Counted from the stretch's first letter, positions 2,101 to 45,649 are shown. The stretch: 64,000 nucleotides of DNA from an uncultured Methanosarcinales archaeon (GCA_964354685.1 CAYHAM010000002.1:71058-135057), one strand, 5' to 3'. Notes: generated from the sequence alone by a model not told the origin. Program-made: numbers and translations.

Positions 2101-2614
2101 AAAATCACTCCAAGGCTATAGGGAACAAGGCACAGTAAGAGATCTAACCCCACAAGAAAAGGGTTATTACCAAACCTTTCTTGAAACAACTTATAAGGAT
2201 AATCTAAAAGCTTCAGATTTTCTCCTTGTGAAGTTTCCTAGATGGAGTATCATTTCTGGTTACTATACAATGCACGATATTTCCAAGCTTTATCTTGCAA
2301 AACAGTTTAACCTAAAGTTTTCTCAGCCAGAGGTACATGGAGCTGTGATTCAAGCCTTGAGAGAACTGGTAAAAAGAAAAGATATCTTAGAGTTAATAGA
2401 AGAGGCTAATGAAGAGTATGAAAATATAATCTCCTTGCATTTAAGTTTGAAACAAGGCAAAGAAGAGCGAGAGAAAACCCAATATTACACATCAGAAACA
2501 ATCAAAGCAGAGGTAAACCTACAAAAGGGCTCTTACTTCCTAGAAAGGCTGGTGAAACCCTACATCAAACTAGTAGAAAAACTAATGAAGCCTGAAAAAC
2601 AAAGTGGTTTTTGA
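2096..2614 (+). CDS. HEPN-like small protein, probable partner of the downstream nucleotidyltransferase. Start moved to the in-frame ATG at 2096 because the track start 2009 lies inside the operator repeats
   Basis: All-helical small protein (MVKSLQGYREQGTVRDL...RELVKRKDILELIEEANEEYENII) whose end overlaps the NTase gene by 11 nt; two-gene HEPN/MNT-type architecture; HEPN assignment inferred, not motif-proven. Confidence 0.4.
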   Translation: MVKSLQGYREQGTVRDLTPQEKGYYQTFLETTYKDNLKASDFLLVKFPRWSIISGYYTMHDISKLYLAKQFNLKFSQPEVHGAVIQALRELVKRKDILELIEEANEEYENIISLHLSLKQGKEEREKTQYYTSETIKAEVNLQKGSYFLERLVKPYIKLVEKLMKPEKQSGF

Positions 2615-3170
2615 GATGATAGCAAACGTATTAAACAACAAGAGTGTCTGGAAACTTTTGTTTCTTATCTCGTACTCACCTGGCTCTGGTTATACAAGGG
2701 GAGAATTACTAAAGTTAACAAAATGGAACAATCTTTCACTTGACAGGGTGCTAAAAAAATTGTTGTTTTACAATATAATCCAAAAAGAGGGGAGAATTAT
2801 AAAATTGAACTTTGAGGACATTAAAACAAAAGTTATAGTAAATCTAATAGAACAAGAAAAAAAAAGATTAAACTATCCCTCATACGAACTATATTTAATT
2901 ATCACTGAATTTTTGCGGTTAGTGGAAAATAAACCAATATTTGCGATTTATCTTTTTGGGAGCTGGGCAAAAAAAACAGCTTCAAAAAGTTCTGATATTG
3001 ATTTGGCAATCTTTTCTAAAGATGAGCTCAATTTAATAAAGGTTCAGGACAAAATAGAGCAGAGATTTGAAGTGAAGTTACAATTGCATTATTTCGAGGA
3101 AGATACACTCAAAAATAAAAGAGATCCTTTGATAAAAAACATTCTAAAAGATGGAATAAAAATAAAATAA
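2604..3170 (+). CDS. Minimal nucleotidyltransferase (MNT/Pol-beta superfamily) with N-terminal wHTH-like region
   Basis: LFGSWAKKTASKSSDIDLAIF is the GS-x9-13-DxD NTase motif; overlaps the upstream ORF. Confidence 0.7.
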   Translation: MVFEMIANVLNNKSVWKLLFLISYSPGSGYTRGELLKLTKWNNLSLDRVLKKLLFYNIIQKEGRIIKLNFEDIKTKVIVNLIEQEKKRLNYPSYELYLIITEFLRLVENKPIFAIYLFGSWAKKTASKSSDIDLAIFSKDELNLIKVQDKIEQRFEVKLQLHYFEEDTLKNKRDPLIKNILKDGIKIK

Positions 3171-3178
3171 GAGAAAGC

Positions 3179-3268
3179 TCAAGAACAGCTCTGATCACTC
3201 AAAGATTTCAGAACTAGTTCCAAAATCTCTTTTCTATTGTAAGTATGTATAATAACACTTACTCTCAT
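3179..3268 (-). pseudogene. Truncated duplicate of the 5' end (29 codons then stop) and promoter-proximal sequence of the GT2 gene at 1..1803
   Basis: Reverse translation MRVSVIIHTYNRKEILELVLKSLSDQSCS* parallels MRVSVIIPTYNRKEVLELVLKSLAYQSY of the GT2 gene; ~90 nt of DNA (gtataataacacttactctcatctatcccc...) aligns with 1760-1850 at ~75% identity. Confidence 0.6.
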
Positions 3269-3375
3269 CTATCCCCCCAGATATTACAATAATACCAATC
3301 CTTATATATTTTTATGTTTTATAACCTCTCCAAAATAGCAAAAATTATATATCCTCATATATATTATTTGAGTAT

Positions 3376-5406
3376 ATGAAGATACTCTTCTATGCCATAA
3401 ACGGGGTGGGTTTAGGCCATGTGAACAGAACCCTAGCAATAGCCAAAGAGATAAGAAAACTAAGCCCAAAAGCCCATATAATGTTTGTCACCAATTCTCA
3501 ATTTCCTGATTTAATTGAAAAAGCTAACTTCCCTTACATAAAGCTGCCAATCTTTGAAGGAGACCCTCTTACAAAGGATATGACAAGATACATACCTTAT
3601 TTAGTAAATGAAAAGCTGATAGAAGCAACCTTGTATGACTATGAGCCAGATGCTGTTGTTTATGACACCCATTTTCCATTTGGAACTGTTAAAAAAGCAA
3701 GTGAATTCAATGTTAAAAACATACTAATACTTAGAAAGCTGAAAAACAAGGTTCTTGATGATTACATAAAACAGTTTAAGCATTTTGATCTAATAGTCTT
3801 GGCCCACTCTGAACAAGAGTTTTTAGATATGAAAGTTTCAAAACAATTAATACAAAAGATAAAGAATAAAGGCATTGTGTTTGTTGGTCCAATCATAAGA
3901 AAACCAGAAAATATAGAACCAAATTACAACTTAAACAAATTTAACATCCTTGTAACAGCTGGTGGAGGAGGTTGGAATGATTCCAAGAAGTTTGTTGAAA
4001 TTTGTCTAAAAGTTTGCAAAAAAATTGTTAATAAAAACAAAAACATCAATTGCTACATCATAACAGGCCCTTTATACAGATGGAATATTAATCATATCAA
4101 AAATAACAACATTATAATCAAAAGCTTTGAACCCAAACTGATAGATCTAATGCAAAAATGTGATTTGGTTGTTTCTCAAGCAGGGTATAATGTATGCAAT
4201 GAAATCATGCTAACAAAAACACCAGCAATAATTATCTCAAGAAAAGACCCACTTGAAGACCAAAGAGAAAGGGCAAAATGGCTTTCAGAAAAAGGTGTTG
4301 CAATAACAATCAACACCTTAAATGAAAAAACATTAACAGAAGCTATTGAAAAGTTTTACCAAAATAAAGTTCTACAAACAAAGATGAAGAGAGCATTTTC
4401 TAATATTAAACTTGATATAGGTAATGAAAGATTATCAAAGATGATAATAAATTTGATACCAAAAAGAATAGAAAAACAGGTGAAGCTTTCAAGAAAAAAA
4501 CATAAACTCCTGGATTCAAAATATAGGCAAACCCAACAAATAGAAAAAAACCAAACAAATCTGTTGGAAGAAAAAGGCATACAGGAACAATGGGATACTC
4601 TACTAAAAAAAGAAACAAACCTTAGACAAAAACAAGGCGATATCTATTCCAAATTAGAACCATTATATAAAAAAATAAGAGAGTTAAAAAAACAAACACC
4701 ACAACAAGAATACATTAAACAACTCAATCCATTAGAAAAACAAAAACAACAACTCTTAAAACAAAACAAAAAACTAGAAGAACAAACTAAAAAACTAAAA
4801 GAACAAAACAAAACACTAAAAAACAAAGAGCCCTTTAAAACACTACTAGAACTACAAAAAGAACTCGATCAAAAATATGAAGAACTCTTTGAGCCATACA
4901 ACATCCAGATTGGAGAAGTAATACAGAAACAAGAGCTTGTTCTTGAGGGAAAATACACTGAAAAGACTTGGAATGCACTTGAAAAACAAAAACAAAGTTT
5001 GGAATCAGAAAAACACCAATTCTGGCAAAAAGAGTTAAAACCAATAGAAGACAAAGTTAACCTATCCAAAGCCAAAGTTAAAACATACACTAAAGAACAT
5101 GGCATCTTAGATATTAAAGAGATTGACAAAGATATTGAATCTCTATGGCAAGAAATCAACAAAAACAACAAAGAGCTACAACTTATAGACAACGACATAG
5201 AAAATCTCAACAAAGAAACTAATAAAATCCAAAAATTAGTTGACAAAAAATACAACAAACAACTCCTTCCTCTAGATTACAAGCTAGACAAAATACTCAA
5301 CGAAAAACAAGACTTCCTAAAAAAGCACAAACTATTTAAAGATTTCAAAAGACTGGACAAGGAAAGGGAAAGATTAAATAAAGAGATTTCAGAGCTGCAG
5401 GATTAA
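3376..5406 (+). CDS. UDP-glycosyltransferase (GT1/GT28 MurG/MGT-like N-terminal domain) fused to a ~300-aa K/E/Q-rich coiled-coil tail
   Basis: MKILFYAINGVGLGHVNRTLAIAKEI... (G-rich loop + GHVN), LVTAGGGGW, SQAGYNVCNEI; C-terminal half is low-complexity coiled coil (QKQQLLKQNKKLEEQTKKLKEQNK...). Stop at 5406, next ATG at 5408. Confidence 0.7.
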   Translation: MKILFYAINGVGLGHVNRTLAIAKEIRKLSPKAHIMFVTNSQFPDLIEKANFPYIKLPIFEGDPLTKDMTRYIPYLVNEKLIEATLYDYEPDAVVYDTHFPFGTVKKASEFNVKNILILRKLKNKVLDDYIKQFKHFDLIVLAHSEQEFLDMKVSKQLIQKIKNKGIVFVGPIIRKPENIEPNYNLNKFNILVTAGGGGWNDSKKFVEICLKVCKKIVNKNKNINCYIITGPLYRWNINHIKNNNIIIKSFEPKLIDLMQKCDLVVSQAGYNVCNEIMLTKTPAIIISRKDPLEDQRERAKWLSEKGVAITINTLNEKTLTEAIEKFYQNKVLQTKMKRAFSNIKLDIGNERLSKMIINLIPKRIEKQVKLSRKKHKLLDSKYRQTQQIEKNQTNLLEEKGIQEQWDTLLKKETNLRQKQGDIYSKLEPLYKKIRELKKQTPQQEYIKQLNPLEKQKQQLLKQNKKLEEQTKKLKEQNKTLKNKEPFKTLLELQKELDQKYEELFEPYNIQIGEVIQKQELVLEGKYTEKTWNALEKQKQSLESEKHQFWQKELKPIEDKVNLSKAKVKTYTKEHGILDIKEIDKDIESLWQEINKNNKELQLIDNDIENLNKETNKIQKLVDKKYNKQLLPLDYKLDKILNEKQDFLKKHKLFKDFKRLDKERERLNKEISELQD

Positions 5407-7488: not shown

Positions 7489-8406
7489 ATGGGGGTTAGT
7501 ACAGAGCTAAAAGAGTGGGTTAACAAGGGATTAAAAAAAGGCTACTCAAAGGACAAGCTTAGACAGGAGCTTACAAAGGCAGGTTATTCTGATAAGGACA
7601 TAACTTCTGCTTTAAAGGAAACAGGATCTAGCCCAAAGCGTAATCCTCTAGTTATTGGTATTGTTTTGATTGCAGTTATTATTGGATCTATTTACTTGTT
7701 TAATGCATTGCAGACAAAGGTCATTGTTCTTGAGGCTGAAAAGGACTTTAATTTGGGAGAGTGGGTGAGGGTAGAGCCGGAAGGCGACTATGTTGTTATA
7801 AACAACGAGACTGAAATTTGGAGTAGACCTTTCAACCTAAAAAAACTTTCCAATTTTCGCGAAGCACAAAAAATAAATGTCAGGGTTATTGCCAAAGGCG
7901 GTGAGGGGGAGGAGGAAAACCTGATTCTCATTTTAGAGGTTGTTAATCAGAGCCATTATGGAAATTTTGAGAACTCAACAATTTATCCTTCAATAGTCAC
8001 TGTCATTTCAGACGTAAGCGGCAATAAGACAATAGAGACCCGCTTCTCTGGCAAATATTTGAACGGAGTGATGAATGACAAATTGGTTCAGAAAAAAGGC
8101 ACTTTTGATACGTCCAACGCAGTCTTTATGAATAGCAGATTCCAAGATATGGTTATCGAGGGCAACAAAACAATCTTTTATTACAGAAAGGATAAATGGC
8201 CTGTGCTTTCTGTTGTCTTTGGAGAGGACCTCAACAACTGGAAGTTGCTGGAGATATCCTCAACAGAGTGGCAAAGTTTTCTGATTCAGTTTGACATGAA
8301 TAGGTTTTCAGACTTTGAAAATGCGGAATTAATATTCGAGTTAAGCACAGACACTTTAAACCCTATACCTACATACATTGATAAAGTTTATGTCACTTTA
8401 GAATAA
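7489..8406 (+). CDS. N-terminally anchored membrane/surface protein, paralog A (short cytoplasmic N-domain, one TM, ~230-aa external domain)
   Basis: MGVSTELKEWVNKGLKKGYSKDKLRQELTKAGYSDKDITSALKETGSSPKRNPLVIGIVLIAVIIGSIYLF...; first ~80 codons nearly identical at DNA level to 8756.. paralog. Confidence 0.6.
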   Translation: MGVSTELKEWVNKGLKKGYSKDKLRQELTKAGYSDKDITSALKETGSSPKRNPLVIGIVLIAVIIGSIYLFNALQTKVIVLEAEKDFNLGEWVRVEPEGDYVVINNETEIWSRPFNLKKLSNFREAQKINVRVIAKGGEGEEENLILILEVVNQSHYGNFENSTIYPSIVTVISDVSGNKTIETRFSGKYLNGVMNDKLVQKKGTFDTSNAVFMNSRFQDMVIEGNKTIFYYRKDKWPVLSVVFGEDLNNWKLLEISSTEWQSFLIQFDMNRFSDFENAELIFELSTDTLNPIPTYIDKVYVTLE

Positions 8407-8755: not shown

Positions 8756-9685
8756 ATGGGGGTTAGCAAAGAGCTAAAAGAGTGGGTTAACAAGGGATTA
8801 AAAAAAGGTTACTCAAAGGACAAGCTTAGGCAGGAGCTTACAAAGGTAGGTTATTCTGATAAGGACATAACTTCTGCTTTAAAGGAAACAGGATCTAGCC
8901 CAAAGCGTAATCCTCTAGTTATTGGTATTGTTTTGATTGCAGTTATTATTGGATCTATTTACTTGTTTAATGCATTGCAGACAAAGGGAATTGTGCTAGA
9001 GGCAGAGAAAGATTTTAAGTCTGGTGACTTTGGTGTGGAGTTCGAGCCCTTTACTGATTACATCAGACTCAGCAGTAATGGCTATATCACAACCGAATCT
9101 CTGAATCTTAAGGAACTTAAAAACTTTGAAAAAGCAGACAAGATCAATGTTGAATTTATTGCCAGAGGAGAAACAGGCAAGGCAGAAAACATAGTCTACA
9201 CATACGAGCTTCTTGATGGTGAGACATTTGACAATTTGGAGGATTCAATGAATTACTCAACCAGGATAACTTTGCTCTGTGATATAACTTGTGACAAGAC
9301 TCTTGAGAAAAGCCTGAGCGGACAATGGCTGAACAGAGTCATGAATGAGAGACTTAACCAGGAAGAAGACACATTTGACCAGGGTGAAATCTTTGTTTCA
9401 CACGCCAAGTTCAAGGACATAACTGTTGAAGGGAACAAAATGGTTATACGATATGAGAGGAGTATCTGGCCTGTTGTTTATGTATCAACCTGGTCCACAG
9501 AATGCTTCTCCTGCAAAAAGCCTGCTGCGGTGGAAATATCTTCACAGGAATGGGAAACCTACACTGTACAGTTTGATTTGGCTGACCCGAAATCAGATTA
9601 TTCCTACCTGGGTATAGAATTGTCAACTGATGAAGAAAACCCAAAGCCGGTCTACATAGACCAAGTAATTGTCAGCTTAAAATAA
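8756..9685 (+). CDS. N-terminally anchored membrane/surface protein, paralog B
   Basis: Same N-terminal 80 aa as paralog A; diverged C-terminal domain with 4 Cys (CDITCDKT...STECFSCKKP). Confidence 0.6.
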   Translation: MGVSKELKEWVNKGLKKGYSKDKLRQELTKVGYSDKDITSALKETGSSPKRNPLVIGIVLIAVIIGSIYLFNALQTKGIVLEAEKDFKSGDFGVEFEPFTDYIRLSSNGYITTESLNLKELKNFEKADKINVEFIARGETGKAENIVYTYELLDGETFDNLEDSMNYSTRITLLCDITCDKTLEKSLSGQWLNRVMNERLNQEEDTFDQGEIFVSHAKFKDITVEGNKMVIRYERSIWPVVYVSTWSTECFSCKKPAAVEISSQEWETYTVQFDLADPKSDYSYLGIELSTDEENPKPVYIDQVIVSLK

Positions 9686-22151: not shown

Positions 22152-22914
22152 AAAATTAAAAAGTTTAATTACAAAAACTTTAAAAACACTCTCAATATTA
22201 ATACTTTCTATGCCCAAGAAATCCAGGGAAAAGTTCAAAGTCTATAAAAATGTCTTTGACGAGTTCGCCCTAAGAACACTGTTTGAACTAGAATCAAAGG
22301 GCCATTTCCTAGAAGAAGGCTTGGTTCCAATAAGCATAGGTAAAGAATCTAATGTTTTCTGGGGGCAAGGCAAAGCAGGAGAAGTTATTGTTAAAATCTA
22401 CAGGCTAGAGAGTTGTGATTTCAACAGGATGTATGACTATATTAAGTTTGATCCAAGATTCCTAAAGCTCAAAAAACATCGCAGAAAGATTATTCTAGCA
22501 TGGGCTCAAAGAGAGTATAGAAACCTGTTAAAAGCCAGAGAAGCAAATGTGAATGCACCTCTACCTCATGCTATATTAAACAATGTTTTGGTTATGGAAC
22601 TTATTGGAAAGCATGCACCTGCTGCAAAAATCAAAGATGTTTTGCCAAAAAACCCTAAGATGTTCTTTGATGAGATTGTTAAAAACATAGAAAAATTCTA
22701 CAAAGCAGGCTATGTACACGGAGACCTATCCAAATTTAATATTCTAAATGATGATGAAAGACCAGTTCTAATTGACTTCTCCCAAGCAACTCCTCTAAAA
22801 AACCCAAATGCAACTGATTATCTGAAAAGAGACATTAAAAATGTTGCTGACTTTTTTAGAAAGCTTGGTGTTAAGATAGATGATGAAAAAATATTCAAAA
22901 AAATCATATCATGA
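22138..22914 (+). CDS. rio1: RIO-type serine/threonine protein kinase (Rio1-like); true start probably ATG near 22213 (MPKKSREKF...)
   Basis: ISIGKESNVFWG (ATP loop), YVHGDLSKFNIL (catalytic loop), LIDFSQA (metal-binding). Confidence 0.8.
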   Translation: MQKGRKLKSLITKTLKTLSILILSMPKKSREKFKVYKNVFDEFALRTLFELESKGHFLEEGLVPISIGKESNVFWGQGKAGEVIVKIYRLESCDFNRMYDYIKFDPRFLKLKKHRRKIILAWAQREYRNLLKAREANVNAPLPHAILNNVLVMELIGKHAPAAKIKDVLPKNPKMFFDEIVKNIEKFYKAGYVHGDLSKFNILNDDERPVLIDFSQATPLKNPNATDYLKRDIKNVADFFRKLGVKIDDEKIFKKIIS

Positions 22915-23511
22915 GCTTTTTGTTTTATACCTGCCTCTCATCTCCACTTTCTCAAACCTTTCCAGAATCTGCTCAGCATGCTTTACCTTCTTCTTATATG
23001 CTCCAATTACTTCCTTAAAGGCTTGCTCAAAAATAGAATAATGCTTTGACTCCAAAGCCTGCTTTAACAAATGCAAATCAACTGCCTTGTCTTCTATCTT
23101 GCTTGATTCAAAGCTCAACCCAAAATCAATAAAATAAATCTGCTCTTTTAACACCATGTTAGAGGTTGTCAAATCAGAATGAATAACATCATTGTTATGC
23201 AAAATAGCAACCTTCTCCCCAATCTCCTTGCAATATTTTTTATAATTCTTATTGTTCAAAACATCCCTTAACCTAGGCCCATCAATAAGCTCCATCTCAA
23301 CAATCATCTTCCTGTCATCAGAACTCAAAAGCTTTGGAGTAAAACCGAGCTTAGCCAATTTATCAAGCAACTTTGACTCTCGCCTTGTCCTAAACCTTCT
23401 CAGCTTCTCATCTATTTGTTCTATTCTATAGCCCTTCTTGATTCTATCTTTGATTACTTTACTCTTATCCAGGTATATTATAGCCTCTGCTCCGTCTCCA
23501 ATTTGTTTCAT
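22909..23511 (-). CDS. bud32: KEOPS complex kinase Bud32 (Kae1-associated kinase)
   Basis: GAEAIIY, VIHSDLTTSNMVL, IDFGLS; ~200 aa as in archaeal Bud32. Confidence 0.8.
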   Translation of the reverse strand: MKQIGDGAEAIIYLDKSKVIKDRIKKGYRIEQIDEKLRRFRTRRESKLLDKLAKLGFTPKLLSSDDRKMIVEMELIDGPRLRDVLNNKNYKKYCKEIGEKVAILHNNDVIHSDLTTSNMVLKEQIYFIDFGLSFESSKIEDKAVDLHLLKQALESKHYSIFEQAFKEVIGAYKKKVKHAEQILERFEKVEMRGRYKTKSS

Positions 23512-23750: not shown

Positions 23751-23802
23751 ACATAGTATTTAGAATAAACTATTTAAACAAAACCAAATTAACACAGCAC
23801 AT

Positions 23803-23875
23803 AGCCCCGTGGTCTAGTGGTCAAGGATAACCGGCTCTGGACCGGTTGGCGGCAGTTCGAATCTGCCCGGGGCTA
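23803..23875 (+). tRNA. tRNA-Gln (anticodon CUG)
   Basis: Acceptor AGCCCCG/CGGGGCU, D-arm GUCU..GGAU, anticodon stem ACCGG/CCGGU with loop CUCUGGA, T-arm GGCAG-UUCGAAU-CUGCC, discriminator A; no encoded CCA. Confidence 0.8.
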
Positions 23876-23886
23876 TCTTTTAATGT

Positions 23887-41746: not shown

Positions 41747-42101
41747 TTAACAACACCCCCTTAAAAGTATATTTTTAAAGACGTAATTGAATTATATAAA
41801 CTTTTCGAGTATTAACCAAAAACTTTATAAACCATAAAAACATTCTAATTCAAGTGATAAAAATGGCAAATGGTGGTTTAGTTCATCTCGGGAAAAAGTA
41901 ATTCTGTTTTAATTAGATTAACCACTATTGTTGTTTCTTCATTGTTCCATAGGTAGCTCTATGCTACCTTGAATTCTAAAACCAATCATCAACAAACCCT
42001 TTTTTGTGAGATAAGCCTTTATCGGGCTTATTGATTATCGACTGTATTTTTGTAGTCATAAGTACAATTTATCGACGATAAATAGCAAAAGCTATAACCA
42101 T

Positions 42102-42173
42102 GGTTGCAGTGGTGTAATGGCAGCACAAGAGATTGTGGCTCTCTAGGACCGGGTTCAACTCCCGGCTGCAGCC
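42102..42173 (+). tRNA. tRNA-His (anticodon GUG) with genomically encoded G-1 and discriminator C
   Basis: G-1 + acceptor GUUGCAG/CUGCAGC, D-arm GUGU..GCAC, anticodon stem AGAGA/UCUCU loop UUGUGGC, T-arm CCGGG-UUCAACU-CCCGG, discriminator C pairing G-1. Confidence 0.8.
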
Positions 42174-42211
42174 CTCAAGTCATGTGGACTATAAACACGG
42201 AGGAAAAGAAA

Positions 42212-42283
42212 ATGAAATGGAAACAAAAAATAATACAGGAGGCTCAGGCGCTACCAGGCGCTGAGTGTGTTCACACCTATTAG
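42212..42283 (+). CDS. Candidate small peptide ORF (23 aa; 33 aa if started at 42182), one Cys near C-terminus
   Basis: MKWKQKIIQEAQALPGAECVHTY with GGAGG 8 nt upstream of ATG 42212; 3' end overlaps the start of the downstream ORF. Speculative. Confidence 0.2.
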   Translation: MKWKQKIIQEAQALPGAECVHTY

Positions 42284-43292
42284 AAGATCTACCCTAGAGA
42301 GATCTCTTGAATATTTGGTGTGTCCAGCAGATCAAGGAGAACTAGAGTTAGATGTTGCAAACAGAGACTGGATATCTGAAGGTAAATTTCAGTGCACAGA
42401 ATGTGATGCAACATACAACATAAGAAATGGTGTGCCATATTTCTTTGATGACGGCAATGGATATGAATGGGACAAAGACATCTCTGAAGAAAAAATTTTA
42501 GCCAGTATTATAGATTCAATAGGCAAAGATAGTATCACGTGGACACAAATAATTGCATTGAGTAACCTATTTTTAGATAGGTTTAGAGATAGAAAACAAG
42601 CAATTGATGCAATCTTTAAGGTTGTTGAAAGAGTTGTGGCAACCATTGATGCTAACAGTCAACTACAAGCATATCTAACACAAGCAGCAACTGCAGCAAG
42701 ATACAATTTAGAGAACTACAGAGGGACCTTCACTCTCCCAAATGACATCTTGAAGTTTGTAATAGGAAACTATCAGCCAAGTTCAGGAATTGTTGTTGAG
42801 GGGGCATGCGCAACAGGGGAATGTTTGTTACAACTAACTGAAGCCATAGGTTCTGACTTTTACTTGGGTTTAGACATTGCAGGTGCCATGGTAAGAAATG
42901 CCCAGCAACAGGCATTGGAAAACATGCTTTTTGTGCAAGCAGACATTTGTTCTCTACCAATTAGAACAAACTCAGCAGGAATCTATGTTTTAAACAATGT
43001 CTTTGACAGAGTCATGGACCCGCAGAAGGCATGCGAACAAGCTAATAGGATTCTCAACAAAGAGCAGAGTGAACTTGTTTTAAGCAACTGTGATCCATTA
43101 CAGTACGGTTATGTAACTGAAGAGGGTCTAGAAGTTACTTTTGTACCAGAAGAAAAGCAAATCAGTCTTGAGAAAGGTTTTGAGCTAGCAGGATTCAGAG
43201 TGGTTGTGGAACAAAAAGGCATATGGCCAATATATACTGTGGCCTATGATCAAGAATTCTTACCCTACAAAAGCTTGGGTGGGAGGAGGTAA
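42267..43292 (+). CDS. Trm112-like zinc-ribbon domain fused to a class-I methyltransferase-like domain (non-ATG start)
   Basis: LVCPADQGELELD...QCTECDATYNIRNGVPYF (Trm112/DUF343-type ribbon); later GIVVEGACATGECLLQL...LGLDIAGAM...FVQADICSLP resembles degenerate MTase motifs I-III; GC-richer than flanks. Confidence 0.5.
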   Translation: MFTPIRRSTLERSLEYLVCPADQGELELDVANRDWISEGKFQCTECDATYNIRNGVPYFFDDGNGYEWDKDISEEKILASIIDSIGKDSITWTQIIALSNLFLDRFRDRKQAIDAIFKVVERVVATIDANSQLQAYLTQAATAARYNLENYRGTFTLPNDILKFVIGNYQPSSGIVVEGACATGECLLQLTEAIGSDFYLGLDIAGAMVRNAQQQALENMLFVQADICSLPIRTNSAGIYVLNNVFDRVMDPQKACEQANRILNKEQSELVLSNCDPLQYGYVTEEGLEVTFVPEEKQISLEKGFELAGFRVVVEQKGIWPIYTVAYDQEFLPYKSLGGRR

Positions 43293-43297
43293 ACAAA

Positions 43298-44302
43298 ATG
43301 ACCGCAGTACCAATAAACGAACAAGTACCCGTGATAAAGGGTCTAAACTTGTCAAACAAGGAGCTTAGAAAAGCAGAGCTCAATAACAAGATGCTTCTCA
43401 TAGACATAGAAACAAGCAACAAGTGCAACCTAAACTGCCAGTATTGCTTTAGAGACATCTATGGAACAAAAGAGGCTTTAGAAAAAGAGCTAAAGCTTGA
43501 CAAGAGACTAGACTTAATTAAACAAGCAAAAGAGCTAGGATGTGAAACAATAAAGATAACAGGAGCAGGAGAGCCATTTGCAGACAAGGAATTTTGGCCA
43601 ATGATAGAATATGCCAACAAGCTTGGAATGTGGGTTTTGATCTTTACCAATGGCTCCTTGATTGATAAGAATGTGGTAAAGAGACTTGCAAAGATGAATG
43701 TGTCAATCATAGTCAAATGCAACTCTTTTAACGAAGAAAAAGAAGACACAATGGTTGGCAGAAAAGGATATGCAGAAAGGAGAAACAAGGCAATCCAATT
43801 CCTAATAGAAGAAGGATTCAACAAAACAAACCCAACAAGATTAGGAAGAGACTTAGTAATCACAAACATAAACAAGGATGAGCTTTATGACTCTTTGAGA
43901 TGGTGCAGAAAAAACAATGTTTTCCCTTTGTTCAGGCCTTTAATGCCAATTGGAGCAGCAAGGAAGCTAACTGATTGGATGATAAGCAAAGAAGAGACAA
44001 AAGCGATGTATGAGAAAGCAAGAGAAGTTGACAGCAAAGAGTTTGGCATAAACTACAATCTAACCCTGCCTTACATGGGAGGGGTATGGTGTAGGCAACT
44101 CCACTATGCTATCTATGTTAACATACTAGGAGAAGTCTATGCATGCACTGGTTCAAAGAAACTATTCGGCAACTTCAACAAACAAAGTTTAAAAGAGATT
44201 TGGAATAGCGAAGAGGCAAGGATAATAAGGAAAACACCTTATGAAAGCTGTCCACTCAGAGAATCCTATTGGAGAGGAGACAAAGACTATGACTGCATTT
44301 AA
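43298..44302 (+). CDS. Radical SAM enzyme with C-terminal SPASM/twitch-like domain
   Basis: CNLNCQYC (CxxxCxxC), ITGAGEPF, FTNGSL; C-terminal GGVWCRQLHYAIYVNILGEVYACTGSKKLFGN. Confidence 0.7.
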   Translation: MTAVPINEQVPVIKGLNLSNKELRKAELNNKMLLIDIETSNKCNLNCQYCFRDIYGTKEALEKELKLDKRLDLIKQAKELGCETIKITGAGEPFADKEFWPMIEYANKLGMWVLIFTNGSLIDKNVVKRLAKMNVSIIVKCNSFNEEKEDTMVGRKGYAERRNKAIQFLIEEGFNKTNPTRLGRDLVITNINKDELYDSLRWCRKNNVFPLFRPLMPIGAARKLTDWMISKEETKAMYEKAREVDSKEFGINYNLTLPYMGGVWCRQLHYAIYVNILGEVYACTGSKKLFGNFNKQSLKEIWNSEEARIIRKTPYESCPLRESYWRGDKDYDCI

Positions 44303-44347
44303 TTTTTTTTATTTTTTCGATAAGTTTAAATACAAACCAAAATTTGG

Positions 44348-45649
44348 ATGATTAAGATGAAACTCGAAACAGCAAAAGGAGTCCGCGACTTCCCACCAGA
44401 AGAGAAAATCATAAGACAGCAGATTACAGATAGACTTAAAACTATTTTTGAGATATATGGCTATTCTCCATTGGAAACTCCAATTATTGAGAGATACGAG
44501 GTTTTAACTGCAAAGTTTGCAGCAGGAGAAGAATCAGATGCTCTAAAAGAGACATTCAAGTTTGAAGACCAGGGCAAGCGCAAGTTGGGGCTAAGGTTTG
44601 ATCTAACAGTTCCTCTTTCTAGGTTTGTTAGCATGAACCCAAAAATAAAAATGCCATTTAAAAGATATGAAATAGGAAGAACTTATAGAGATGGCCCAAT
44701 AAAACTAGGGCGATATAGAGAATTCTGGCAATGTGATGTTGATGTGGTTGGATGCAAAGACATGCTAGCAGATGCAGAGATAATAAAGCTCAGCTTAGAT
44801 GTTTTCAAAGAGCTTGGCTTTGATGCTTACATTGAACTAAACAATAGAAAACTATTAAATGGAATTTTGGAATATGCAAATGTTCCAAAACAAAAAAAAG
44901 AGCAGGCAATAATAGCAATAGACAAACTAAAAAAGCTTGGCTTAGCAAAGGTAAAAAAAGAATTAAAAGAAAAAGGCATAAGTGATGACTCAATCAAAAA
45001 AGTAGTAGATGTCCTAGAAACCAAAGGCACAAATGAACAGATTCTAAGCAAACTCAAAAAAACAATTGACAACAAAATAGGTTTAGAAGGAATTGAAGAG
45101 CTGGAACAAATCTTTAATTATTTAACACCTATTGAAGCAAAGGATGTAAAACTAAACATCTCTTTAGCACGAGGCCTAGCTTATTACACAGGCCCTGTTT
45201 ATGAGGGCTTTCTAAGAAAATCAAAAATATCAAGCTCAATATGTGGTGGTGGAAGATATGACGACTTGATTGGCTTATACATTGGAGGAAAAGAACAATA
45301 CCCAGCAACAGGAATAAGCTTTGGCCTAGAACCAATCACAGAAGCAATAAAGCTAACAAAAAAGGAAATTGTAAAAACAGTTTCTCAGGTTTACATCATC
45401 CCGATTAAAACAAATAAAGAGGCTTTAGAAATTGCCCAAAAACTAAGAAAAGCAGGAATCAAAACAGACATTGATTTGTTAGGCCGTGGATTAAGCAAAA
45501 ACCTAGACTATGCAAACAAGCTCAATATCCCTTATGTTGTTATAGTAGGCCCAAAAGACCTAGAGAAAAACCAGGCAACAATAAGAAACATGAAAACAGG
45601 CAAAGAAGAAAAGGTTTTGATAAAAGACATTGCTGAATATAAATTCTAA
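44348..45649 (+). CDS. hisS: Histidyl-tRNA synthetase
   Basis: Class II motifs: KGVRDFPPEE, FKRYEIGRTYRDG, GGGRYDDL; C-terminal anticodon-binding domain. Confidence 0.95.
   Translation: MIKMKLETAKGVRDFPPEEKIIRQQITDRLKTIFEIYGYSPLETPIIERYEVLTAKFAAGEESDALKETFKFEDQGKRKLGLRFDLTVPLSRFVSMNPKIKMPFKRYEIGRTYRDGPIKLGRYREFWQCDVDVVGCKDMLADAEIIKLSLDVFKELGFDAYIELNNRKLLNGILEYANVPKQKKEQAIIAIDKLKKLGLAKVKKELKEKGISDDSIKKVVDVLETKGTNEQILSKLKKTIDNKIGLEGIEELEQIFNYLTPIEAKDVKLNISLARGLAYYTGPVYEGFLRKSKISSSICGGGRYDDLIGLYIGGKEQYPATGISFGLEPITEAIKLTKKEIVKTVSQVYIIPIKTNKEALEIAQKLRKAGIKTDIDLLGRGLSKNLDYANKLNIPYVVIVGPKDLEKNQATIRNMKTGKEEKVLIKDIAEYKF

Follow-up and report, generated by a model that had tools for sequence, protein, structure and literature searches.

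A methyltransferase–radical SAM gene pair associated with tRNA-His and hisS in DPANN archaea

A conserved gene pair and its closest described counterparts

The 64,000-nucleotide stretch of DNA analysed here (GCA_964354685.1 CAYHAM010000002.1:71058-135057; hereafter, the window) comes from an uncultured archaeon labelled Methanosarcinales and encodes, between tRNA-His and the histidyl-tRNA synthetase (HisRS) gene hisS, a class-I S-adenosylmethionine (SAM) methyltransferase (MT) and a radical SAM (rSAM) enzyme. Among described enzymes, those of the twitch/SPASM type (SkfB, SuiB, CteB, anSME, and EpeE; PF04055 with PF13186) share with the rSAM protein a CX3CX2C core and a C-terminal beta-hairpin CX(n)GX4C Fe-S domain, while MoaA (GTP 3',8-cyclase) is similar in size and also carries a C-terminal auxiliary cluster. 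The MT is most like the Trm112-activated methyltransferases (Trm9, Trm11, Mtq2, and Bud23) in having a Methyltransf_11-type Rossmann fold and a Trm112 ribbon; ribbons of this type are partners of tRNA, rRNA, and release-factor methyltransferases. By analogy, the logic of the pair resembles that of Trm5 with TYW1/Taw1 (wyosine) and of Elp3 followed by Trm9-Trm112 (mcm5U), where one nucleoside is acted on by both a class-I methyltransferase and an rSAM enzyme that has an additional Fe-S cluster; in the Elp3 pathway, the methyltransferase is itself a Trm112 partner.

The locus differs from each of these systems. Compared with the twitch/SPASM maturases, the rSAM protein is only 16-20% identical, has the CX2CX5CX3C block deleted and so at most one auxiliary cluster, and comes with neither an RRE domain (recognition element of ribosomally synthesised and post-translationally modified peptides, RiPPs) nor a precursor gene. 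In contrast to MoaA, it has an obligate MT partner and no molybdopterin genes nearby, and it scores 58-65 bits against MoaA-type NCBIfam models with cut-offs of 231-325. The MT, unlike the Trm112 partners, carries its ribbon fused in cis rather than as a separate subunit, has a ~90-residue helical insert bearing RY..E.Y.GTF, and is not an ortholog of any named partner. Neither a Wyosine_form nor a GNAT domain is present, and homology to the wyosine and mcm5U pathways is at the superfamily level only. RlmA(I), the 23S rRNA m1G745 methyltransferase, is 14% identical to the MT, shares no specific motifs with it, and has no rSAM partner. Both proteins thus fall in well-known superfamilies, and their specific family has no curated model or characterised member.

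The window reads like a low-GC (guanine plus cytosine, 35.5%) genome of a DPANN archaeon (Diapherotrites, Parvarchaeota, Aenigmarchaeota, Nanoarchaeota, and Nanohaloarchaeota), and the named relatives of both proteins are mostly metagenome-assembled genomes (MAGs) labelled Woesearchaeota. In order, and all on the plus strand, the locus consists of tRNA-His (GUG), a 23-codon open reading frame (ORF), the GTG-start MT gene, the rSAM gene, and hisS (Table 1). The original prediction, made from the sequence alone, had described a tRNA-His with encoded G-1, a non-ATG-start gene for a Trm112-like ribbon fused to a methyltransferase, and, 5 nt downstream, an rSAM gene with the motif CNLNCQYC. All three were recovered: the tRNA by ARAGORN, Rfam, and sequence inspection, and the two proteins by Pfam matches above cut-off. 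What is unusual is the combination of a reduced SPASM domain, an obligate and fast-evolving MT, conservation above that of HisRS, synteny with tRNA-His and hisS, and a cross-domain range. The reading favoured here, although still tentatively, is that the two enzymes form a module headed by tRNA-His and modify a substrate that is conserved and probably related to translation.

Comparative analyses covered 20 distinct archaeal loci, the window included, from genome and metagenome collections (MAG labels: Woesearchaeota, Aenigmatarchaeota, Micrarchaeota, 'archaeon', and one Methanosarcinales). In all 20, the gene just before the rSAM gene encodes a class-I MT, always of one family. The hisS gene follows directly downstream in 13, the other 7 having the pair elsewhere without hisS, and tRNA-His lies upstream in 9 (the window, L005, L006, L014, L018, L030, L033, L036, and L037). 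Genes outside these four are almost never common to the loci. The full four-gene order is found in both rSAM clades, at 76-85% and 62-65% identity, over distances at which HisRS is only 43-56% identical to that of the window. The rSAM protein is 62-85% identical and of fixed length (334 residues), whereas the MT encoded in the same loci falls to 25-57%. For instance, L018 and the window share 81% identity in the rSAM protein, 27% in the MT, and 43% in HisRS. The MT evolves much faster than its rSAM partner.

Beyond archaea, rSAM proteins of 61-63% identity are present in Candidate Phyla Radiation (CPR) bacteria (Peregrinibacteria, two MAGs; Parcubacteria). There, the rSAM gene is followed by one for a protein of 280-312 residues without Pfam matches, which lies downstream and not upstream as in archaea. 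Profile comparison places this protein, as a divergent member, in the MT family (hhalign probability 85%, E 7e-6), with which it shares the motifs ARY..E.Y, LDRV, and DG.E.L. The pair has been exchanged with CPR bacteria, and in a profile search of 1.84 billion representatives the DPANN/CPR rSAM family formed one 50%-identity cluster (597 bits), the next relative scoring 332 bits. Adjacency in every archaeal locus, together with the MT homolog that follows the rSAM gene in CPR bacteria, bears out the earlier idea that the two enzymes form a modification duo.

The MT-rSAM pair begins 37 nt downstream of tRNA-His with no terminator between them, and the rSAM gene is translationally coupled to the MT gene. 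Because an oligo-T run and a TATA-like box separate the rSAM gene from hisS, transcription probably covers tRNA-His, the MT gene, and the rSAM gene as one unit, next to which hisS is a conserved neighbour. The oligo-T run has counterparts at the corresponding position behind the rSAM gene in L006, L007, L009, L010, L018, and L037, and TATA-like boxes precede hisS in other loci too.

The locus had also been described as a higher-GC islet. As a whole, the 2.2-kb stretch does stand out, with 39.6% GC where the window has 35.5% (97.7th percentile among sliding windows), but each gene taken singly lies within about one standard deviation of the window genes (MT 0.393, rank 6 of 52; rSAM 0.383, rank 16 of 52; gene mean 0.360, standard deviation 0.031). 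Upstream, the genes for EF-1alpha and S10 have values of 0.402 and 0.393, and the locally GC-rich string quoted earlier itself contains a 10-nt duplication (see below). The accompanying suggestion of an insertion at the tRNA, read as a recent one, finds no support. No second copy of the tRNA 3' end that might form an att-like repeat was found in the 64 kb with up to three mismatches allowed, none of the six neighbouring ORFs scanned encodes an integrase, and a repeat analysis of the window gave no sign of a mobile insertion. With no compositional outlier either, and with the four-gene order kept across both deep rSAM clades, a mobile island or tRNA-targeted element was rejected. There is no convincing foreign islet; the two genes are a pair conserved among DPANN archaea.

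Features of the two enzymes

In Pfam, the rSAM protein matches Radical_SAM (PF04055, 67.9 bits against a cut-off of 29.5), SPASM (PF13186, 41 bits), and Fer4_12. Its cluster cysteines C43, C47, and C50 are invariant, and its AlphaFold2 (AF2) model, with a predicted local distance difference test (pLDDT) score of 89, matches the rSAM fold. The C-terminal SPASM/twitch cysteine pattern that had been proposed is twitch-like but not a full SPASM: instead of the seven-cysteine motif CX9-15GX4C...CX2CX5CX3C...C, only C265, C283, C318, and C333 are present, and a ~15-residue deletion in the family removes CX2CX5CX3C. The deleted block is kept in homologs P0071-P0079 and P0249, and distant homologs (30-40% identity) keep the full motif. 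What is left corresponds to a twitch domain, with the C265-X17-C283 hairpin, an invariant C318, and a C333 that is invariant in the DPANN/CPR alignment (A3). In sister clusters (35-47%; Prosthecochloris, with P. marina WP_110022176, Paenibacillus macerans, with WP_328270130, and metagenomic proteins) only the first three C-terminal cysteines are invariant, so that the wider clade has three, as does MoaA. Because CX2CX5CX3C is missing, the enzyme is predicted to hold only one twitch-like auxiliary [4Fe-4S] cluster, in which one iron may be left open, as it is in MoaA. An RRE domain (PqqD-like winged helix-turn-helix) was not among the Pfam matches, only ~35 residues, nearly invariant, preceding the rSAM core.

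No curated NCBIfam rSAM model, housekeeping equivalogs included, reached its cut-off. The best score was that of TIGR04317 (tungsten-cofactor-oxidoreductase maturase; 90 against 380), followed by StsB, WgkB, NirJ, AhbD, MoaA, and viperin at 60-83 bits; MoaA (65 against 284), viperin (64 against 180), and PqqE (51 against 381) were all far below threshold. The best sequence matches in the PDB were MoaA (45 bits) and SkfB, then viperin-like enzymes and NifB. Foldseek placed SkfB, SuiB, EpeE, viperins, MoaA, and anSME about equal, at a template modelling (TM) score of ~0.6, with twitch/SPASM enzymes as the top matches (E ~1e-12 to 1e-14); viperin was covered at TMt 0.7-0.78, and MoaA, DesII, and BlsE were also found. 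A defence system was considered and rejected, as PADLOC returned only generic pVip-core matches (69 bits) and nothing for the MT; PHROGs likewise gave generic rSAM families only. The homologs of 30-40% identity, with full SPASM motifs, sit in bacterial clusters of the acyl carrier protein/ketosynthase/AMP-ligase type and are uninformative for the DPANN/CPR family. Among the 150 best relatives out of the 1.84 billion representatives, five long proteins of 523-803 residues were scanned (four of the eleven above 600 residues, plus one of 523); these are double rSAM, B12-rSAM, and response-regulator fusions, and none carries an MT or RNA-binding domain that would serve as a Rosetta stone.

The MT exceeds the Pfam cut-offs for Trm112p (PF03966, 24.6 bits against 22) and for Methyltransf_11, 25, and 31, and its AF2 model has a pLDDT of 89. 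Its ribbon, with predicted zinc ligands C19, D22, C43, and C46, has the Haloferax Trm112 entry 6zxw_H as its best PDB sequence match. Since it scores only 35.9 bits against NF038101 (Trm112_arch, cut-off 77), it is a domain-level relative of Trm112 and not an ortholog. The family profile as a whole has the Trm112 partner Hvo_0019 of Haloferax (6f5z, 56 bits) as its best PDB sequence match. The earlier description of the methyltransferase fold as degenerate is not upheld: the Rossmann fold, motif I, acidic beta-2 end, and motif IV are all in place. Motifs II to IV do not vary; motif I is GACATGE in the subgroup of the window and G.GPG(D/E)N elsewhere in the family. Family-wide invariant positions comprise R145-Y146..E149.Y151.G153 before beta-1, G184 (motif I), G201.D203 (motif II), N244..D247-R248, C275.P277.Q279, W320, and E330. 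Judging from these positions, the MT looks like an active SAM-binding enzyme with a substrate-pocket signature of its own.

Foldseek ranked histidine N-methyltransferases, which act on the histidine imidazole, first for the MT (OvoM, OvsM, the OvoA MT domain, and METTL9). Similarity to OvoM, OvsM, the C-terminal domain of OvoA, or METTL9 did not extend beyond the generic class-I fold, and the resemblance is not robust. A literature search found nothing relevant on the family, on tRNA-His with radical SAM in DPANN, or on OvoM/OvsM structures.

These matches bear on the possibility that the pair belongs to a small-molecule pathway, making or tailoring a nucleotide or nucleoside, a cofactor fragment, or a derivative of an amino acid, perhaps histidine, with the open iron site used as in MoaA. 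The MoaA and viperin matches of the rSAM protein, the 69-bit pVip score, and the Foldseek ranking of the MT are consistent with such a role, as are the acidic MT, in which no RNA-binding domain was found, and the three invariant C-terminal cysteines of the sister clusters, which would fit an open coordination site. The extreme conservation of the rSAM protein in archaea and CPR bacteria would likewise fit a universal small substrate. Against this, the rSAM scores reflect generic core similarity far below the family cut-offs, no transporter, ligase, kinase, or other pathway gene is conserved nearby, and DPANN genomes generally lack biosynthetic pathways. A small-molecule role is thus judged somewhat unlikely, though it is the most credible of the alternatives.

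Alternatively, the pair might target a conserved translation protein (HisRS, a ribosomal protein, or a factor of elongation or release) at one of its residues, with the Trm112-like ribbon helping in the methylation. This would agree with the top fold matches of the rSAM protein, since anSME, SkfB, SuiB, and EpeE have protein or peptide substrates. One of the Trm112 partners, Mtq2, methylates a release factor, and an acidic MT could bind a basic ribosomal protein. Yet neither NPPY nor another protein-methyltransferase signature was found in the MT family alignment, hisS is the only conserved candidate substrate gene in the locus, and the target site would have to be common to proteins of archaea and CPR bacteria. 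Modification of a protein is therefore considered improbable.

A proposed tRNA-His-led module and its candidate substrate

In the favoured reading, that of a tRNA-His-led module, the MT and rSAM enzymes would work one after the other on a single conserved substrate, for which the locus contains no peptide gene. The rSAM enzyme would cleave SAM to a 5'-deoxyadenosyl radical that activates a C-H bond or adds to a base, the auxiliary cluster would anchor the substrate or relay electrons, and the MT would methylate before or after the rSAM step. A substrate in the translation apparatus is favoured because of the deep synteny, the probable co-transcription with a tRNA, the ribbon of Trm112 type, and an analogy to both Trm5/TYW1 and Elp3/Trm9-Trm112. 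That the substrate is an RNA or a component of that apparatus, with tRNA-His as the obvious candidate, is judged possible but less likely than not. Unlikely, in its full extent, is the narrower proposal that the pair installs an undescribed radical-SAM-dependent methylated modification on tRNA-His, His-tRNA-His, or the HisRS-tRNA-His system, in DPANN archaea, from the same transcript as the tRNA, and with exchange to CPR bacteria.

DPANN archaea and CPR bacteria retain very few enzymes. That an rSAM protein is conserved at 62-85%, always has a fast-evolving MT as its partner, and repeatedly lies between tRNA-His and hisS indicates a function that has gone unrecognised and is under strong constraint. 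Should the substrate prove to be a tRNA or a translation component, the pair would represent a new RNA or protein modification pathway and one of the few enzyme modules transcribed together with their tRNA; should it be tRNA-His itself, the pair would extend histidine decoding or identity in a lineage-specific way in ultra-small symbionts. If it is a small molecule, the product would be a metabolite important to obligate symbionts of both domains.

Several observations weigh against a role in translation, and in histidine decoding in particular. To our knowledge, none of the known tRNA-His modifications requires such a pair. The hisS gene appears to have its own promoter, so that its link to the pair is one of neighbourhood and not of an operon, and the CPR homologs are adjacent to neither hisS nor tRNA-His. 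The rSAM family has ~70 clusters at 90% identity, against at least 120 for comparably related HisRS, and most Woesearchaeota probably lack the pair. The ribbon is missing from several MT family members. The MT is acidic (pI 4.5, against 8.9 for the rSAM protein), which is unusual for an RNA methyltransferase, and no RNA-binding domain (THUMP, PUA, TRAM, S4, etc.) was found in either protein, in longer members, or in the fusion relatives scanned. Moreover, the pair lies beside hisS in none of four Woesearchaeota control loci on long contigs (HisRS 59-62% identical to that of the window). Three of the four have no tRNA-His nearby. In the fourth (L046), tRNA-His is 1.75 kb upstream of hisS on the same strand, and the interval holds other cargo: positions 2178-5299 comprise tRNA-His, a GNAT acetyltransferase, an ArgE/DapE-type M20 deacylase, and hisS, in a geometry like that of tRNA-His-MT-rSAM-hisS. 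Because the tRNA-His/hisS bracket exists with other cargo, the tie of the pair to histidine decoding is weakened but not removed. The junction without the pair, which the original prediction had suggested looking for in related genomes, was found as a bracket in one control only.

The interval from tRNA-His to hisS may thus be a variable slot, into which the pair could have been inserted in the distant past. In that case, tRNA-His and hisS would be ancestral neighbours and the pair an accessory cassette, for example for viperin-like defence or stress, that entered long ago, uses the tRNA promoter, and is unrelated to histidine decoding. The L046 slot, the patchy cross-domain distribution (CPR rSAM proteins included), the discordant rates seen in L018, the seven loci with the pair elsewhere, and the pVip matches are all compatible with a passenger of this kind. 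We nevertheless regard it as unlikely, a little less so than the narrow tRNA-His proposal and more so than a small-molecule pathway. No integrase, att repeat, or compositional signal was detected, both rSAM clades retain the four-gene order across phylum-level distances while the other flanks are shuffled, the pVip score is a generic core match with no counterpart for the MT, and the L046-type geometry occurs in only one of the four control loci.

The short upstream ORF and further sequence features

The original prediction also placed a small ORF with a good Shine-Dalgarno (SD) sequence ahead of the MT gene and suggested that it might encode a precursor peptide. The ORF and its SD are present as described (Table 1), but the ORF is a former part of the MT gene, its ancestral 5' end, which a tandem duplication of 10 nt has put out of frame. 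The sequence CAGGCGCT occurs twice at a 10-nt period (42245-42252 and 42255-42262), and the frame of the ORF is one off that of the MT. Removal of one CAGGCGCT(AC) copy (42245-42254) joins the ORF in frame to the MT (giving MKWKQKIIQEAQALSVFTPIRR...), and the fused product, MKWKQKIIQEAQALSVFTPIRRSTLERSLEYLVCP..., contains the segment EAQ-ALSVFTPIRR, which aligns with homolog N-termini such as MLAQTALGVFTAIRR, MRRKAPQVLVVFTVSRR, and MYKKVLIVFTVIRK. The strong SD serves the ATG at 42212; the GTG at 42267 has none. It is this restoration of a homolog-like N-terminus by a one-copy deletion, together with the assignment of the SD to ATG 42212, that identifies the ORF as the old MT 5' end.

An assembly artefact was rejected, as a second, independent assembly (Logan, run ERR3804374) shows the identical duplication, although the underlying reads may coincide. 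A programmed +1 frameshift was likewise rejected, there being no slippery or stop-stimulated site that would give the conserved VFT.IRR segment. L012 has an out-of-frame stop at the identical position, which is accounted for by stops concealed in the homologous codons (ATT-AGA / ATT-GAA). At present, translation of the MT most likely begins at GTG 42267, with ribosomes probably reinitiating there after the upstream ORF, which ends 12 nt beyond this GTG. Because some homologs begin just 2-3 residues ahead of the conserved F-.-IRR (e.g., P0099, MVVFIRR...), a protein started at this GTG is plausibly functional.

The N-terminus of the MT is evolutionarily labile more generally. In L012 (3776-3834) and the 98% identical L027, the ribbon is encoded in frame and preceded by GTG-ATA-TAA, without a canonical start. 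In both, a 75-codon ORF in another frame overlaps the ribbon, and the public annotation begins 100 codons later (288 residues). This 5' end could reflect ribbon loss in progress, a non-canonical start, or a pseudogene. MT 5' ends are thus frame-shifted or start-less in at least two lineages, a pattern of mis-annotation that deserves flagging.

The ORF does not co-occur with the rSAM gene as a precursor should. It is absent from the relatives, and no conserved peptide gene lies between tRNA-His and the MT in the nine loci with tRNA-His upstream. The tRNA-to-MT spacer is only ~15-40 nt in eight of the nine (~100 nt in L006), which leaves no room for a precursor gene. As a separate observation, the L006 spacer, the sole one of ~100 nt, contains a strong hairpin (GAGGTGCTGAAAATTCC TTCG GGAATTTTGGCACCTC, 4838-4876) seen in this locus only. 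A RiPP system, in which the 23-residue or another small ORF would be matured by the rSAM/SPASM enzyme and methylated by the MT, could be expected from the frequent role of rSAM/SPASM enzymes as RiPP maturases, from the strong SD, and from SkfB and SuiB being top Foldseek matches. These points are offset by the origin of the ORF as a frame-shifted MT N-terminus, by its absence from all relatives, and by the missing RRE domain. In addition, the rSAM protein is far more conserved than usual RiPP maturases, and the one 47-residue 'precursor' of an outgroup is a split rSAM N-terminus. A RiPP system of any kind is accordingly very improbable; for the proposed ORF, ruled out as a precursor by the reconstructed N-terminus and the spacer lengths, it is essentially excluded, and a false RiPP lead is removed.

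The outgroup in question is the bacterial homolog P0072 (L039, 4861-5942), where the RiPP-precursor-like ORF matches the ...PPIIKGWGIF... segment of intact rSAM homologs and is the split-off N-terminus of the rSAM gene. The P0072 gene adjoins a ValRS-like gene and a nitroreductase/RraA fusion.

Table 1. Coordinates of features at the tRNA-His–hisS locus, counted from the first nucleotide of the window.
Feature	Position	Strand	Evidence and remarks
tRNA-His, anticodon GTG	42103-42174, with G-1 at 42102	+	ARAGORN; Rfam tRNA 56.2 bits; C73 present, CCA not encoded
SD sequence GGAGG	42199-42203	+	Sequence; 8 nt before ATG 42212; signal of the ancestral MT start
23-codon ORF MKWKQKIIQEAQALPGAECVHTY	42212-42283, TAG stop	+	Orphaned MT 5' end, out of frame
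10-nt tandem duplication, CAGGCGCTAC followed by CAGGCGCTGA	42245-42264	+	Sequence; +1 frame shift
MT, class-I SAM methyltransferase with N-terminal Trm112-type ribbon	42267-43292	+	341 residues, GTG start, pI 4.5; Pfam, NCBIfam, family alignments
Trm112-like zinc ribbon, MT residues 14-58	42306-42440	+	C19-P-x-D22...C43-x-x-C46; PF03966 24.6 bits
MT Rossmann core, residues 168-293	42768-43145	+	Holds N..DR and NC.P.Q motifs; RY..E.Y.GTF (residues 145-155) just upstream
rSAM enzyme	43298-44302	+	334 residues, pI 8.9; own SD GGAGGAGG within the 3' end of the MT gene; begins 5 nt after the MT stop
CX3CX2C (C43, C47, C50), radical SAM [4Fe-4S] ligands	43424-43447	+	Invariant in all homologs
Reduced SPASM/twitch-like domain	44090-44296	+	C265-X17-C283 beta-hairpin with GX4C, then C318 and C333; PF13186 41 bits
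T8-A-T6 run, putative archaeal oligo-T terminator	44303-44317	+	Sequence; directly 3' of the rSAM stop
TTTAAATA, TATA-box-like element, putative separate hisS promoter	44325-44332	+	Sequence
hisS (histidine--tRNA ligase)	44348-45649	+	TIGR00442 377 bits against a cut-off of 287; alternative start ATG 44357

Apart from these features, an Rfam scan of the region returned the tRNA only. The ~140-nt intergenic stretch upstream of tRNA-His (window 41855-41990, plus strand; L006 4495-4640) is ~77% nucleotide-identical between the window and L006, despite MTs that are only 34% identical as proteins. It holds AATTCTG(T/A)TTTAATTAG and a 7-bp hairpin (GGTAGC...GCTACC against GCTAG...CTAGC) with one compensatory pair, has no Rfam match, and may be a non-coding RNA or a regulatory element. 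The motif GGTG....AGTTCAY also occurs upstream of tRNA-His, in the window (41872-41886), L014 (3639), L018 (3735 and 4005), and L036 (2790). A small AbrB/SpoVT-like gene has it at its 5' end in L014, L018, and L036; a further copy in L018 is found between tRNA-His and the MT start. This motif may be a ribosome-binding site with its spacer or an operator.

Further upstream, a regulator of the HTH_10 type (bacterio-opsin-activator-type, ~220-260 residues, N-terminus MW(I/V)(C/A)KL..KHDCIIG..C) precedes the MT gene in L005, L009, L011, L012, L013, L015, and L022, and has no homolog in the window. In the window, a gene for a RIO-type kinase (22909-23511, minus strand) adjoins tRNA-Gln (23802-23877, plus strand). 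Similarly, tRNA-Gln and a RIO kinase gene lie directly upstream of MT-rSAM in L001 (4025-4705), and in L006 the kinase gene (2690-3283) is ~1.5 kb upstream of tRNA-His. These arrangements are remnants of a wider synteny among the closest relatives.

Some Woesearchaeota HisRS proteins (P0150, P0196, and P0241; L022 4996-6756) are 580-745 residues long and carry a fused tRNA_SAD domain (PF07973), a domain associated with editing in Thr- and Ala-tRNA synthetases. Elsewhere in the window, two tandem paralogous ORFs on the plus strand (7489-8406 and 8756-9685; 305 and 309 residues) have near-identical N-termini, MGVS(T/K)ELKEWVNKGLKKGYSKDKLRQELTK..., and look like a recent tandem duplication.

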